Source: an uncultured Clostridiaceae bacterium
Lineage (GTDB): Bacteria; Bacillota; Clostridia; Lachnospirales; Lachnospiraceae
NCBI GenBank assembly: GCA_958441075.1
Contig: CAUCBQ010000001.1
Coordinates: 1-54,233 of the forward strand
Direction of reading: 5' to 3'
Length of the DNA stretch: 54,233 nt
Below the pieces are notes generated by a model, which saw only the letters and a list, made by a program, of their open reading frames with translations, did no database searches and was not told where the DNA came from. The position numbers and the translations under genes were made by a program. Below are positions 8,171 to 24,445 of this stretch, in pieces (position 1 is the stretch's first letter; each line of letters starts with the position of its first letter).

Positions 8171-8437
8171 ATCCACGCACCTTGCTTTGTGCAGGCATCA
8201 CGGACGTTACTCATGCAGTTAGCTCGATCCAGGCTGCCTTACGGCACACGAGAGCTTCTGCTTAGTGCTGCTACATTCCTGTCCTGACACGGTTCACAGA
8301 TTCCCGTTGCGTAAGACCCAAACGTCAACGCCACTTACACAAGGCAGCTCCGCAACGTGTTGCCCGAGGCAAGGTATCACCCCTGCTGGAGCGGATTGCA
8401 GGTTCAGGGCACCGCTATCTCCCCGGCTGCGTGGAAA
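8171..8437 (-). ncRNA. ffs: signal recognition particle RNA, large (Alu-containing) bacterial form
   Basis: Minus strand has the helix-8 core GAACCGTGTCAGG-ACA-GGAA-TGT-AGCAGCACTAAG, an Alu-like 5' part (GGGGAGATAGCGGTGCCCTGAACCTGCAATCCGCT) and complementary ends (CCACGCA / TGCGTGG); it lies upstream of dnaX. Ends are approximate. Confidence 0.93.
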
Positions 8438-19750: not shown

Positions 19751-20299
19751 TTACTCCACATCCTCAAATGCTGTCACATACTCGAGTGCTGACGCACCCT
19801 CCATATCCTGACCATCAATCTGTACCGTCAAAGTGGAGAGTTCAAAATTTTCTATAAAGGTATTTCCAATTTCCACCAGAAACTGAGCGTCACTGACGCC
19901 TTCTTTATTCTCTGCCTGGTTTAAGTTGAGAACGCCCTTTGCATTCTCCTCTTCACCTGTTTTATTAAAGGCAATAACCTCTGTTCCCTCAGTGAAAATA
20001 CCGTATTCCACCATCTTGTCTACCAGTGCCTGGGCATTGAGATCGTCGTCTTCAAGGGAATCCATCTCCTGAACCAGACTGTCTCCGGCACCCTTGTGGT
20101 AAACAGAAATAACAGCCACTGGCTCTATATTGGGATCAGGAACCTTGTCAGAAGCTCCGCCGGTGGTTGGAACCACTGCCGGGCCTGAATTCTCCGCTGC
20201 TGCTGTTGTTTCTTCCTTCTTCTTCTCAGTTGTAGGCGTACAGGCTGCAAGGGAAACTGCCATCATTGCCGCCATCAGGCCTAATAACCATTTTTTCAT
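19751..20299 (-). CDS. lipoprotein with GerMN-like C-terminal domain
   Basis: LAAC lipobox, low-complexity linker, 'IGNTFIENF...LTVQIDG' GerMN-like end. Confidence 0.6.
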   Translation of the reverse strand: MKKWLLGLMAAMMAVSLAACTPTTEKKKEETTAAAENSGPAVVPTTGGASDKVPDPNIEPVAVISVYHKGAGDSLVQEMDSLEDDDLNAQALVDKMVEYGIFTEGTEVIAFNKTGEEENAKGVLNLNQAENKEGVSDAQFLVEIGNTFIENFELSTLTVQIDGQDMEGASALEYVTAFEDVE

Positions 20300-20316
20300 T
20301 TTAAAAACTGCCTCCT

Positions 20317-20760
20317 TTAATTCTTCTCAAAGCTACGAAACCAGGAGGTCAGCTTTGTGAGCGCTTTTACAAGAGCCTTCATCTCCTCATCTGTCAGCGC
20401 ATCCATCACTCCCTGTATCATCTGTTCATGAAAATACTTATGATGCTCGTATGCCTTGATTCCTTTTTCAGAAAGTGAAATATAAACTACCCGCCGGTCT
20501 TCTGTGCTGCGGCTGCGCACCACATAACCCTTTTTTACAAGGCTGTTCATGGAGATGGTCAGCGTTCCTACTGTCACCGACAGTTCCTTTGCAATGGATG
20601 ACATATTTTTCTTCGTTCCCACGCCGATTGCATGAATCACATGCATATCATTACTGGTCAGATCCTTGTTTTCATAGCTGGTAATAGCCTTTTCTTCGAT
20701 ATCATTGATATCCCGGAACAGATTTACCAATACATCGTTCAGTGTATCGTAGGTCTCCAC
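20317..20760 (-). CDS. fabT: MarR family regulator, FabT-like fatty-acid synthesis repressor
   Basis: LVNLF.DI..IEE..I...DLT..DMH.I..IG...VTVGTLT.S.N.L..KGY..R.RS..DRRVV closely follows streptococcal/enterococcal FabT; GTG start after AAAGGA. Confidence 0.7.
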   Translation of the reverse strand: METYDTLNDVLVNLFRDINDIEEKAITSYENKDLTSNDMHVIHAIGVGTKKNMSSIAKELSVTVGTLTISMNSLVKKGYVVRSRSTEDRRVVYISLSEKGIKAYEHHKYFHEQMIQGVMDALTDEEMKALVKALTKLTSWFRSFEKN

Positions 20761-20859
20761 GTCTCTTCCTTTCACTTTCCTCAGTATCTTTCAGATACGC
20801 TCTACTGATTGTACAGTATTTTCCTGTGTCATACAAGTCCTAAAATACTTATAAAATTA

Positions 20860-22290
20860 TTAAAAAAATGTGTCCTGCCCCTCTTTTGCAAACACCAGAC
20901 GTTTAAATGCCTCACCCCGCTCTTCAAAATTGCGGAATATTCCATAGCTGGCAGCTGCCGGTGACATAACACAGCTGCGGCCCGGTCTTGTTACCCTTTT
21001 CGCCAGACGGACTGCATCCTCCAGATGAGCTGCCAGAAGCAGTCTGGACGTGTTTTTAAAATGAGGATAATCCGAAGCGATTTCATCAAAGATTCTCTTT
21101 CCTGTAGCCTCCATCAGTATAATATGGGGAACTTCTGACTGGGACAGGTATTCGATCAGCTCTCTGTAATCAATCCCGCGGTCCATGCCTCCGATCAGGA
21201 CAGTATCCGTATCCTTCAGGGTTTTTAATGCCTGAATGGCTGTTTCGCAGATTGTGGAAATAGAATCATCATAGTATTTAGCTCCATTTACTTCCCCCAG
21301 ATACTGCAGACGGTGAGGAAGGGGTTCATACTCTTTAATACCTTCTGTAAACATCTCCTCCGGCATTCCCAGAAGACTGCACACAACATATGCCATACCG
21401 ATATCAAAGTAATTGTGCTGGCCCAAAAGGCGGATCTGGTCTGTAGGGATCTGATAGCTGCGACCTTCATAATGAATGGATGTGATCCCCTGATTTTCCT
21501 CTATATACAGAGAAGCCTGCTCCCCGCATCCTGTTTCCCGACGGTTTTCCCCCTTCCAGAAGCGCTCCAGAGGCGGTTCCGGAAAGGCGGGCTTTGCTGT
21601 AATCAGCCTGGAAGCGCAGGTTCCCGGCTCAGGCAGACACTGGACACTGCAGATCAAAACATCTTCCGGCGTCTGATTCAGAAAAATATTCTCCTTGGCC
21701 CGCACATACTTCTCCATGGTTCCATAGTGATCCAGATGCTCCTCATGGATATTGGACAAAATGGCAATATGCGGCGAAACAGTCATATATTCCAGCTGAT
21801 GGCAGGACAGTTCGCAGACAATCCTTGTCTCCGGCCCAATTTCCTCCATAAGGTCAAACACAGGAATACCGATATTTCCCACCAGAACTGTATCGTATCC
21901 TGCATGCTTCAGGAGATGGTACAAAAGAGTAGTGATGGTACTCTTTCCCTTAGTCCCTGTGATTCCGATAATCTGGTCACGGAAGCACTGAAAAAACAAT
22001 TCTGTCTGTGAAATGATGCGGCAGCTGTAATCCTGAATTGGTCTTTCAAGTACCACGCCGGGACTTTTAAATACAATATCGTAATCATTCAGACAGCTCT
22101 GATAATCAGGACCGCAGATCCACTTTCCAATTCCCTCCGGCAGTTCCCCGGGCGCTGACTGGTCGGCAACATCTACTGCCTGAAAGGTTCCCAGACGGCG
22201 CAGCAGATTCCAGGTGGATTTCCCTTCTCTTCCAAATCCCAGTAAAAGTACCTTCTTTCCCCGTATCCAGGGATCTATTTTCTCTATCAC
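20860..22290 (-). CDS. murD: UDP-MurNAc-L-Ala-glutamate ligase, MurD2-like
   Basis: GFGREG, KSPGV, GITGTKGKST, GNIG, EEHLD, PHRL, DDSIST, SPAAAS; GTG start after GAGGAG; directly downstream of a murL-like gene. Confidence 0.88.
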   Translation of the reverse strand: MIEKIDPWIRGKKVLLLGFGREGKSTWNLLRRLGTFQAVDVADQSAPGELPEGIGKWICGPDYQSCLNDYDIVFKSPGVVLERPIQDYSCRIISQTELFFQCFRDQIIGITGTKGKSTITTLLYHLLKHAGYDTVLVGNIGIPVFDLMEEIGPETRIVCELSCHQLEYMTVSPHIAILSNIHEEHLDHYGTMEKYVRAKENIFLNQTPEDVLICSVQCLPEPGTCASRLITAKPAFPEPPLERFWKGENRRETGCGEQASLYIEENQGITSIHYEGRSYQIPTDQIRLLGQHNYFDIGMAYVVCSLLGMPEEMFTEGIKEYEPLPHRLQYLGEVNGAKYYDDSISTICETAIQALKTLKDTDTVLIGGMDRGIDYRELIEYLSQSEVPHIILMEATGKRIFDEIASDYPHFKNTSRLLLAAHLEDAVRLAKRVTRPGRSCVMSPAAASYGIFRNFEERGEAFKRLVFAKEGQDTFF

Positions 22291-22307
22291 AACATTCTCC
22301 TCGTCTT

Positions 22308-23768
22308 TTATGCTTCCTTTGTACACCTTGATCTGACATAATTCTCCCAGGGCTCAGGCACCAGATTGCTGCTGTCAAAATAGGCAGAAAACTGATCCTT
22401 TCCCGACTGATACCGGTTATACAGGCCGGTTCCCTTATAATAGTCCAGAAGAAGGGGCAGCTTCCTTCCCTCTTTCTCCATCCGGTCAATGGTCAGTACA
22501 ATGGCTGAATTGATCTCATCCCTGCTTCCCACACATTCAAAAGGCTTTTCCTCCCGAATGCCTGTAAGCTGATCTAAAAGAGGCTTCATTTCCTCATCCT
22601 GCAGCATATTTCTGCCAAAGATCCTCTCCACCTCTTCTTCTGAAAGGAAGGGCGACAGAATCAGATATACAAACAGGCACTTGGGACAGCGTCCGCACCA
22701 GCTGTCCGTCTTGCTTCCCGCATTACAGCTTCTGAAAACAGCATGGTACTGCTTCTGTCCTGCAAAGAAACGGGCGATCTGAAACTCGCTTAATGGGCGC
22801 AACATACTGAAATAGTACGCACTTCCGGGAAGGTATTCTGCCTCATAGCGGTGAAAGTCTTCCTCAAATTTGAAGCTCTTGGAATACTGATGATTCACCG
22901 TGCTTCCCTTTACCGTGCTTTCATTGGCGCTGGATTCATTTGAGAGGGCCACATAGGAAAGACCAGCCATCCTGGCTGCCATGATGCTTGAAAATGCCAC
23001 CAGCGCTGAAAAAGGGGTATGTCCGTTTAAATAGCCCTGACGGTTTAATTCCAGCATATTCTGATCCAGGGTACGTTTTACATAAATCACCTGACTCTCA
23101 TCTAATCCTGCTGCCTCTGCCGTATGAATCGTGGCTCCTCTGGAATTAATGATATAAGCATACACAGGAACTCCCAGCCCCTTTAAAAGCTCCAGGGTCA
23201 CAGCAGAATCCTTTCCTCCGCCCACAGGAACCAGCACTCCCTTTTCAGAGCCTCTGACGGAAGAAAGCCGTCCCTGGCCGAAGATAATCTCTGGTTTTCC
23301 GGCTGCTGTAAATCCTTCCGGGGCGCATTCGTTTTCAGCACAGCATACCTCTGTTCCCCTGCCAGATCTGCAGTGAATCTCCATAAAATCCTGAGGATCT
23401 GCTTCTGAAATATGATTCACATAGAAAAATTCTCCCAGCCCATTAAAATACAGATCCTTCCACCAGAGAATCTGGCTGCTGTTTAACCTTCCCGCCTCTA
23501 CGATTACCTCCGGGGAACAGGTAATCTTCCAGTAGCTTACCAGTTCAACCATCCCTAAAGAGAATACCATTTCCTGAAACAGACTGTCATTTCCCCAATT
23601 TTTTCCATCTTTTGACCTCTTGGGAAAGGTCCAGACGGGGGCAAAGGATGACAGCCCTTCTATTTCAAAATCATATGTAATCTTATATGTAAGTTCTGTT
23701 TCTTCTGTTTTATATCCATGATAATAAAAACGCGGAAATTCCTTCCGAAATTTCTGATATCGTTCCAT
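22308..23768 (-). CDS. murL: UDP-MurNAc-L-Ala-L-Glu epimerase (MurL-like, PP-loop)
   Basis: VSYWK, VPVGGGKDS PP-loop, NGHTPFS, SNESSA, NHQYSKS, YFSMLRP, FRSCN, WCGRCPKC, KPFECVG; AAAGAGG RBS before ATG 23768. Confidence 0.8.
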   Translation of the reverse strand: MERYQKFRKEFPRFYYHGYKTEETELTYKITYDFEIEGLSSFAPVWTFPKRSKDGKNWGNDSLFQEMVFSLGMVELVSYWKITCSPEVIVEAGRLNSSQILWWKDLYFNGLGEFFYVNHISEADPQDFMEIHCRSGRGTEVCCAENECAPEGFTAAGKPEIIFGQGRLSSVRGSEKGVLVPVGGGKDSAVTLELLKGLGVPVYAYIINSRGATIHTAEAAGLDESQVIYVKRTLDQNMLELNRQGYLNGHTPFSALVAFSSIMAARMAGLSYVALSNESSANESTVKGSTVNHQYSKSFKFEEDFHRYEAEYLPGSAYYFSMLRPLSEFQIARFFAGQKQYHAVFRSCNAGSKTDSWCGRCPKCLFVYLILSPFLSEEEVERIFGRNMLQDEEMKPLLDQLTGIREEKPFECVGSRDEINSAIVLTIDRMEKEGRKLPLLLDYYKGTGLYNRYQSGKDQFSAYFDSSNLVPEPWENYVRSRCTKEA

Positions 23769-23865
23769 ATAAACCTCTTTCTGCCGTATGCCTCTGTAAA
23801 ACAGCGGCGTTTTCCGGAAACAGCTTCCGCTTATTTTCTGCGGAAATCCGGGGTGTACACGGTCA

Positions 23866-23894
23866 ATTATAGTGTGCAAACGGTTATTTTGCAA
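23866..23894 (-). promoter_or_regulatory. sigma-A promoter of murL-murD
   Basis: TTGCAA (23894-23889), 17 bp, TATAAT (23871-23866). Confidence 0.7.
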
Positions 23895-23917
23895 TGGATA
23901 TTTCCTCTTGTTCTTCC

Positions 23918-24445
23918 TCAAACCATCATGGATGACAAAACAGCGCTGACAGCCAGACTGACGGCAGATGCCAGCAGCCCCCCTGCCAGTACATACCGGG
24001 TACGCCGGATTCCCACAGACCCGAAATAAACGCTCATGCAGTACAGAACGGTTTCTGTGCTGCCCATAAGAATCGAAGCCATGAGCCCCACTCTGGACTC
24101 TGTGCCGTATTCCTTAAAAAGATCCAGAACCAGTCCTGTGGCAGCAGAATTTGATACCAGCCGAACCAAAGCCGCAGGAATAATGGGGGGAGGAAGCCCC
24201 AAAACAGCTGCCGGAGCCTTCAGTATATCTCCCAATGTATCTAACAGACCGGAGGAACGAAGTACACCTACAGATACCATCAGCCCAATAAGCGTAGGAA
24301 AAATTCCTCCTACGGTTTTTACCCCGTCCTTCACCCCCCGGATAAAATCATCCAGTACCGGACGGCCGGATAAAAGGCCAAAGCCTACAATATAAAAAAT
24401 CATAAGAGGCACCATGGCCTCTGATAAGAAAAGAAGAAATGACAT
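23918..24445 (-). CDS. spmB: spore maturation protein B
   Basis: F..G.KDG, P.LIGLMV.VG.LR.SG, GSTET..Y.MSVYFGSVGI..TRY. Confidence 0.9.
   Translation of the reverse strand: MSFLLFLSEAMVPLMIFYIVGFGLLSGRPVLDDFIRGVKDGVKTVGGIFPTLIGLMVSVGVLRSSGLLDTLGDILKAPAAVLGLPPPIIPAALVRLVSNSAATGLVLDLFKEYGTESRVGLMASILMGSTETVLYCMSVYFGSVGIRRTRYVLAGGLLASAVSLAVSAVLSSMMV

Follow-up and report, generated by a model that had tools for sequence, protein, structure and literature searches.

A MurL-MurD2 gene pair predicted to supply D-glutamate without glutamate racemase in an Enterocloster-like group of Lachnospiraceae

How a bacterium without a recognisable glutamate racemase obtains the D-glutamate (D-Glu) of its cell wall is the question raised by a two-gene locus of an uncultured Clostridiaceae bacterium, placed in Lachnospiraceae by GTDB. 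The locus lies on the minus strand of a 54,233-nucleotide stretch of DNA (assembly GCA_958441075.1, contig CAUCBQ010000001.1, positions 1 to 54,233; hereafter the window), where, as described in the initial annotation, an open reading frame (ORF) for a PP-loop protein stands directly upstream of one for a homolog of the ligase MurD. The glutamate racemase MurI is a cofactor-independent enzyme that acts reversibly on free glutamate and is unrelated to the epimerase MurL. Both lead to the same end product, D-Glu as the second residue of the stem peptide. The MurL/MurD2 pathway was discovered in Xanthomonas oryzae in 2017 (via PMC8788868), and its MurL acts on a nucleotide-linked dipeptide in a unidirectional, ATP-consuming reaction (PMC8788868). 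Very probably the window pair is an operon, murL-murD2, for a MurI-independent D-Glu route of the Xanthomonas type. MurD2 would join L-Glu, not D-Glu, to UDP-N-acetylmuramoyl-L-alanine (UDP-MurNAc-L-Ala); MurL would spend ATP, most likely to adenylate the alpha-carboxylate of the added Glu in an AMP-forming step, and inversion would follow. Together, the two enzymes would stand in for MurI, which the genus is without.

The PP-loop protein (murL, 22308..23768, minus strand, ATG start at 23768, 486 residues) matched the NCBIfam model of the Xanthomonadales MurL, NF041275, with 246.7 bits (E 3e-73) over model positions 52-396 of 447. It is 33% identical over 350 residues (E 5e-55) to MurL of X. 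sacchari, whose record, filed as a plasmid, is annotated with murL and then murD. These two comparisons place the protein in the MurL group, apart from the tRNA-modifying enzymes that the initial annotation had named as an example of an unrelated family. In a 20-sequence alignment of the family, X. sacchari MurL shares 40 of the 46 family-invariant residues of the window protein, including G184, G185 and D187 of the PP-loop, H250, the segment N292-K297, the cysteines C348, C358, C361 and C364, and the segment K408-G414. The motifs from which the PP-loop protein had initially been recognised (GGGKDS, NGHxPxS, SNExSA, NHQYSK, SCN, WCGxCPKC and KPFECVG) are indeed all present and all fall on invariant or near-invariant columns of the same alignment. 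The PP-loop GGGKDS itself (residues 183-188) is encoded at 23205..23222 and the cysteine cluster (SCN...WCGRCPKC), which is kept in X. sacchari MurL, at 22677..22727, both on the minus strand. KPFECVG (residues 408-414; 22527..22547, minus strand) contains the invariant C412, a candidate catalytic residue or base judging from its conservation. Family databases point in the same direction: PF26298 and PF26299, named MurL_epimerase_C and MurL_N in the ESM Atlas (Pfam 38.1), are precomputed for the window MurL and its relatives, and the nearest Bacillota clusters in the ESM Atlas are automatically named MurL epimerase. Otherwise, the Pfam search of the window protein gave a weak DUF6395 match only.

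A sequence search of the PDB found no MurL, and its sole match was the PP-loop of TtuA (E 0.41 when searched with the single sequence, 5e-5 with the family profile). An AlphaFold2 model computed from a 20-row alignment reached a mean pLDDT (predicted local distance difference test) of 87.8 and a pTM (predicted template modelling score) of 0.87. Its one disordered, low-confidence stretch, residues 137-174, is an insert of about 38 residues by which the window protein differs from Xanthomonas MurL. The top Foldseek matches of the model were QatC, QueC, TtuA and NAD synthetases, QatC being the best; structural comparison scores were 13.6 and 13.0 for QueC, 12.7 for Cap9 and 8-10 for other PP-loop enzymes. 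The predicted fold is thus of the QueC/QatC-like PP-loop type. The QueC profile (PF06508) did not match the window MurL at E<=1 and matched 4 of the 20 family members weakly (best E 7.5e-4), so the kinship with QueC that the model suggests is visible at the fold level only. The genomes of the genus were also searched for a QueC for the profile comparison, and none was found.

QatC combines a QueC core with N- and C-terminal extensions and a four-cysteine zinc site, C334/C354/C357/C360 (PMC13279940). The four invariant cysteines of the window MurL form a comparable pattern, so the PP-loop assignment of the initial annotation was right, and by analogy they probably constitute the zinc site of the QueC-like fold. 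Moreover, X. oryzae MurL uses one ATP, forms AMP and works in one direction, for which adenylation of the alpha-carboxylate has been proposed (PMC8788868), and the PP-loop fold of the model fits this reported stoichiometry. The window MurL differs from QatC and QueC in that sequence identity is 10-14%, genes for 7-deazaguanine synthesis or defence are absent near murL, and the proposed substrate is a UDP-MurNAc-dipeptide. A 2026 review of the QueC family leaves MurL unmentioned.

With QatC as the best structural match, the pair might be thought to have nothing to do with peptidoglycan and to serve phage defence or the synthesis of a secondary metabolite. We regard this as hardly credible. QatA/B/D-like neighbours were not seen; next to the pair are genes for a Gate-domain protein, a MarR/FabT-like regulator and a lipoprotein. 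Like core genes, murL and murD2 occur throughout the genus in conserved order, the partner of MurL is a full MurD-family ligase scoring above the murD cut-off, and the mutual exclusion of MurL and MurI is exact in the samples described below. Closer to the predicted chemistry is the possibility that the PP-loop protein adenylates its substrate for amidation or another stem-peptide modification instead of epimerisation, the adjacent ligase being a second D-Glu ligase. PP-loop enzymes such as QueC, NAD synthetase and TtuA typically adenylate and then transfer nitrogen or sulfur, which is in its favour; the 40 of 46 invariant residues held in common with Xanthomonas MurL argue against it, and so does the ligase itself.

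This ligase (murD2, a MurD paralogue; 20860..22290, minus strand, GTG start at 22290, 476 residues) is a three-domain Mur ligase as is the canonical MurD of Escherichia coli, scoring 300.8 bits with the murD model TIGR01087, above the cut-off of 212. The residues that bind ATP and UDP-MurNAc (N138, E157, H183, K198 and T321) are conserved. The window ligase shares 27% identity with X. sacchari MurD2 and 30% with the canonical MurD of its own genome. The positions governing specificity were read from a MAFFT alignment of 118 MurD sequences. E184 (21739..21741, minus strand) corresponds to D182 of E. coli MurD and E197 of X. oryzae MurD2, I344 in the DSIST motif (21259..21261, minus strand) to K319 of E. 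coli with Ile also in X. sacchari MurD2, and R371 in the DRG motif (GGMDRGID; 21178..21180, minus strand) to K348 of E. coli and R358 of X. oryzae. The motifs EEH (in SNIHEEHLD) and DDSISTI, singled out in the initial annotation, do align with EDH and NDSKATN of E. coli. The idea that DDSISTI replaces K348 of E. coli was rejected, as the alignment places this motif at K319 and R371 at K348.

The window ligase thus reads E/I/R at the D182/K319/K348 positions, as does X. sacchari MurD2, with which it also shares the DSIST and DRG motifs, whereas the second MurD of the genome, encoded in the division and cell wall (dcw) cluster, reads D/K/K. The same split was found in a wider sample: 95 MurD2-like sequences have E in 84 (D in 11), I in 93 and R in 93, and the canonical MurDs of related genomes have D/K/K in 19 of 19. 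Experimentally, the E197D/R358K double mutant of X. oryzae MurD2 turned to D-Glu use, and the K319T mutant of E. coli MurD accepts L-Glu (PMC8788868). With high confidence, the identity of E184, I344 and R371 with the residues of Xanthomonas MurD2 predicts that the window ligase is of the MurD2 type and adds L-Glu, in keeping with the initial proposal. A D-Glu ligase paired with a non-epimerase PP-loop enzyme would be expected to show D/K/K here instead of E/I/R.

Linkage of the two genes was examined in 98 MurL loci, of which 10 came from the genus, 80 from a species-level genome collection and 8 from another class. A MurD2-like gene followed directly downstream on the same strand in 92 of them, and in all 92 the window MurD2 used as a query outscored the canonical MurD of the window's genome. 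Four of the other six loci were too near a contig end; the remaining two, L073 in a Ruminococcus metagenome-assembled genome (MAG) and L097 in an Oscillospiraceae MAG, were without the gene, with no MurD-like gene at all within 4 kb downstream of MurL. The family search for MurL yielded 2715 clusters with the threshold at E<=0.001 and 1209 with E<=1e-30; members of 840-1250 residues are numerous. All 10 long members checked (among P0122-P0238) were fusions of MurL with a Mur ligase, in both domain orders; one of them, P0152 (1247 residues), has an additional peptidase M20 domain.

MurL-like proteins also occur on three Pseudonocardia plasmids, with 28-30% identity. One of these plasmids, P. 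alni pPaSha1 (L114, 4764-6164), was examined, and its MurL-like gene, annotated as hypothetical, had no adjacent Mur ligase. The MurL family probably includes other functions. Such members without a Mur ligase neighbour, on the Pseudonocardia plasmids and at L073 and L097, speak for the non-epimerase alternative; the distribution of the partner genes speaks against it.

This distribution was followed in 251 Lachnospiraceae genomes, namely the window's own genome and one genome from each of 250 genera with a minimum completeness of 90. At E<=1e-30, MurL was found in 17 and MurI in 220 of the genomes, 14 had neither, and none had both. Thus MurL and MurI were mutually exclusive in the sampled genomes, with MurL in 16 of the 250 sampled genera (about 6%). 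The same pattern held in 16 genomes from other families of the order, 15 of which had MurI, the single MurL-bearing genome (G026) being the one without MurI. In 12 of the 15 other MurL-bearing genera of Lachnospiraceae there was a single MurD at E<=1e-50, located beside MurL; the remaining three had two MurDs (G534) or none at this threshold (G474 and G578). Likewise, MurI over the cut-off was absent, and the MurL-adjacent MurD was the only one, in the cultured Ruminococcus flavefaciens Y1 and Pseudobutyrivibrio xylanivorans DSM 14809. Since the MurL-linked ligase is the only MurD and MurI is absent in most MurL-bearing genera, a ligase restricted to D-Glu could not work there, and the non-epimerase alternative appears very unlikely. 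At least 593 stretches in the species-level genome collection encode a MurL relative. In the class that includes G041 (labelled Duodenibacillus), one of small genomes, MurL was detected at E<=0.001 in 11 of 301 genomes, none of them over the cut-off of the Xanthomonadales MurL model.

In the window's genus, an Enterocloster-like group represented by 24 genomes, MurL was present in 24/24 (truncated by a contig end in one genome, interrupted by an in-frame stop in another) and MurI over the cut-off in none, with weak matches of at most 35.5 bits in 13. The genus resembles Xanthomonas in this absence of MurI and in the position of murL directly upstream of the MurD2 gene, overlapping or abutting it. 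Its MurL activity is predicted from genes, and it differs from Xanthomonas in being Gram-positive, in living anaerobically in the gut and in having a canonical MurD as well. The window assembly, 74.8% complete, contained MurL once and two MurDs over the cut-off, one on contig C18 (420.8 bits) and the other in the window (300.8 bits). The C18 copy belongs to a dcw cluster (G000:C18:1-10257) in the order mraZ-rsmH-(ORF)-two SpoVD-like penicillin-binding proteins (PBPs)-mraY-murD-ftsW/spoVE. The window ligase, in contrast to this canonical copy between mraY and ftsW, lies outside the dcw cluster, as had been noted initially, and is coupled to murL. The dcw cluster of the genome shows no murE/murF between the PBPs and mraY, and two more Mur ligase genes stand together on contig C163. 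By score class, both MurD types were found in 24/24 genomes of the genus, unlike most MurL-bearing Lachnospiraceae. Within the genus, the median ratio of nonsynonymous to synonymous substitution rates (dN/dS) was 0.12 for MurL (11 sequences), 0.11 for MurD2 (12) and 0.09 for canonical MurD (7), and murL, murD2 and canonical murD are all under purifying selection.

Both window genes have longest ORFs, arranged head to tail on the minus strand, that extend upstream of the starts given above (22308..23921 and 20860..22326), and the true starts probably lie downstream of the longest-ORF starts. A ribosome-binding site (RBS), GAAAGAGG, precedes the ATG of murL at 23768, and murL frames in relatives are about 470-490 residues long. 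The GTG of murD2 at 22290 has GAGGAG 6 nt ahead and the murL stop 17 nt ahead, and an N-terminus [V/M/L]IE[K/R]I.PW, which includes the form [V/M/L]IEKIEPW, is common to 16 relatives and begins exactly at this GTG. Upstream of murL, a putative promoter of the sigma-70/SigA type (23866..23894, minus strand) consists of a -35 hexamer TTGCAA (23889-23894), a 17-nt spacer and a -10 hexamer TATAAT (23866-23871). The consensus scan gave it as the top promoter-like site of the region, with 10/12 consensus matches; the scan found 8 sites in total against a shuffle mean of 8.0, i.e., no excess over shuffles. In aligned genus and near-genus murL loci, both hexamers are kept in sequence and position, which supports the sigma-A promoter claimed in the initial annotation. 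The layout is most probably that of a translationally coupled murL-murD2 pair behind a conserved housekeeping-type promoter. On a DNA contig designated X1 the operon differs by 76 substitutions over 3301 bases, without indels. None of the RNA runs listed contained the stretch, and three further RNA runs, which share only the species label with a run that contains it, gave 0 reads and so say nothing on expression.

The 5' leader of murL, about 97 nt long (23769..23865, minus strand), contains a hairpin, as judged from sequence and folding, and ends in the RBS GAAAGAGG; the fold has a minimum free energy of -28.1 kcal/mol (z -2.44 vs. shuffles). Neither the leader nor the rest of the region around the operon matched an Rfam family. 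Eight relatives (L016:2755-2864(-), L007:1368-1467, L014, L011, L015, L026, L010 and L031) have a different murL leader, with a conserved 15-bp long-range stem (AAUCCGYUGU...ACAGCGGGUU) that encloses a variable insert and is followed 3' by a U-rich tract. Compensatory changes were seen in 4 of its 15 pairs, and it had no Rfam family match. From its sequence, this stem with its U-rich tract looks like a terminator or an attenuator. The window leader is unlike it in sequence and forms a separate hairpin. On a larger scale, the window (19751-24445, minus strand) shows the gene order Gate-domain (SpmA/B-like) protein, murL, murD2, MarR/FabT-like regulator and lipoprotein, which is kept across the genus and its nearest relatives, not farther out. 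The SpmA/B-like gene upstream brings a sporulation-linked role to mind, for which synteny was the one indication. A large bacterial signal recognition particle RNA was found elsewhere in the window (8173-8434, minus strand; 188.9 bits).

A number of observations weigh against a Xanthomonas-type route in this genus, starting with the similarity of the proteins themselves. The curated, lineage-specific cut-off of NF041275 is 700 bits and was not reached by the window MurL (247 bits), another point on the side of the non-epimerase alternative. The positions of P433 and F435 in X. oryzae MurD2 (A414 and L416 in E. coli) are occupied by A/Y in the window ligase. In this case, since the P433A and F435L mutants of X. 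oryzae MurD2 had the stereospecificity of the wild type (PMC8788868), the two positions are not decisive for specificity. The phylogeny is divided as well. A quick tree under LG+G4 with MurE/MurF outgroups united 32 MurD2-like rows in one clade (SH-like approximate likelihood ratio test, SH-aLRT, 98) with X. sacchari MurD2 as its sister (91), and a tree of 31 rows under the mixture model LG+C20+F+G4, without distant outgroups, separated 17 MurD2-like sequences plus Xanthomonas MurD2 from 12 canonical sequences plus E. coli MurD with 100/99 support. However, in an approximately unbiased (AU) test under LG+G4 with MurE/MurF outgroups, placing Xanthomonas MurD2 with the canonical MurDs was better than the free quick tree by 8.2 log-likelihood units (p-AU 0.63). 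The relationship anticipated in the initial annotation was thus recovered with the mixture model, while the AU test preferred the alternative; common ancestry of Firmicute and Xanthomonas MurD2 is probable, not secure, and depends on model and outgroup.

One ligase inside the MurD2-like clade stands apart. L133 (G040:C16:12250-13950) is the sole MurD of a genome of the same order that has MurI and no MurL; it is encoded directly beside murI, yet it has D/Q/K at the specificity positions. Judging from these residues, L133 may have undergone in nature the kind of switch to D-Glu use that the E197D/R358K mutations brought about in the laboratory.

Further points on the opposing side concern sampling and the genus. 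The related genomes are not independent, and the exclusion counts overstate the number of events; what they show is a consistent pattern. In the window's own genome, neither the MurI profile search nor tblastn, in which four MurI proteins from related families and the Dat-like (D-amino-acid transaminase) protein of the genus were the queries, gave anything (E<=1e-3 for tblastn), and with this genome 74.8% complete the absence of murI and dat is weak evidence alone. The dN/dS values are rough because dS is saturated (1.5-2.9). Canonical murD is retained by the whole genus, and murL and murD2 are both less conserved than it is. Finally, 18 of the 24 genus genomes encode a probable D-amino-acid transaminase, with 218-253 bits on TIGR01121 (cut-off 277), and this is by far the best family for the protein. 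Of the genes that the initial annotation had proposed to look for, murI and dat were not found in the 75%-complete genome, nor was murI over the cut-off anywhere in the genus, whereas a canonical murD is present in the dcw cluster besides murD2, and a Dat-like gene in most of the genus. A conventional D-Glu path may therefore coexist with the bypass in the genus, or even dominate, and with canonical murD kept and a Dat-like gene in 18/24 genomes, the bypass need not be the sole entry of D-Glu.

These facts underlie an explanation that shares the biochemistry proposed here and differs in its weight: MurL-MurD2 would be a conditional or back-up route, with the main flux running through Dat or imported D-Glu and the dcw MurD. 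We consider it unlikely, though clearly less so than the two alternatives discussed above. The retention of canonical MurD in 24/24 genomes, in its dcw cluster and with the lowest dN/dS (0.09), and the Dat-like genes are what would be expected, and the attenuator-like murL leader of the eight relatives suggests regulated expression. On the other hand, MurI is missing in all 24 genomes, while MurL and MurD2 are present in all of them and under purifying selection; the murL promoter is a strong consensus promoter of the housekeeping type; and five genus genomes that are 90-99% complete (G006, G011, G018, G019 and G022) have neither a Dat-like gene nor a MurI-like match. Moreover, Dat-like genes (>=200 bits) occurred in 6 of 16 genomes from MurI-bearing families of the order; since they are about equally frequent there, their presence is not tied to MurI loss. 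We read MurL-MurD2 as a constitutive de novo D-Glu route in the genus, and the dcw MurD would most likely serve free D-Glu provided by D-amino-acid transaminase or by uptake in the gut. As a separate observation, the canonical dcw MurD of G001, G006, G011 and G019, which are among the six genus genomes without a Dat-like gene, matches its model in two pieces in frames of 521-528 residues, implying an insertion of about 70 residues.

A more far-reaching scenario can be offered tentatively, and we would sooner doubt than endorse it as a whole. Enterocloster-type bacteria would stably run two MurDs of opposite stereospecificity, the dcw enzyme for free D-Glu, salvaged or made by transamination, and MurD2-MurL for de novo synthesis on the nucleotide precursor. 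A so far undescribed, attenuator-like leader RNA would control the module in much of the genus, maybe sensing the supply of wall precursors or D-Glu. The MurD2 clade would go back to an ancient paralogue that Xanthomonas also has; in a considerable fraction of the anaerobes of gut and rumen it would have taken the place of MurI and MurD, with occasional reversion to D-Glu as in the D/Q/K ligase beside murI in G040.

The pathway itself is known. A 2021 review (PMC8788868) credits it to Xanthomonadales, to three genera of Alphaproteobacteria and to four of rare actinomycetes, and calls its distribution narrow; a 2018 review, in the part accessible, adds only orthologues of 'low similarity' from a fungus, cyanobacteria and an amoeba. 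Among titles and abstract beginnings of the literature on MurL/MurD2 and glutamate racemase, subscription journals lying outside the search, nothing concerned Firmicutes, which agrees, within the same scope, with the initial statement that the route has not been characterised in Clostridia. Its occurrence in a Firmicute group thus seems undescribed in print, yet Pfam 38.1 and automatic names already recognise MurL there. In at least one public record, the window-type epimerase is still named 'hypothetical', and for the MurD2-type ligase the automatic label of D-glutamate ligase is probably wrong in these genomes.

Overall, the route appears to be genus-wide in the Enterocloster-like group, and two cultured species of the rumen, Ruminococcus flavefaciens and Pseudobutyrivibrio xylanivorans, carry the same pair of genes. 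Inhibitors of MurI would miss organisms that depend on MurL-MurD2, and inhibitors of MurD2 or MurL intended as 'pathogen-specific' drugs would hit gut commensals too.

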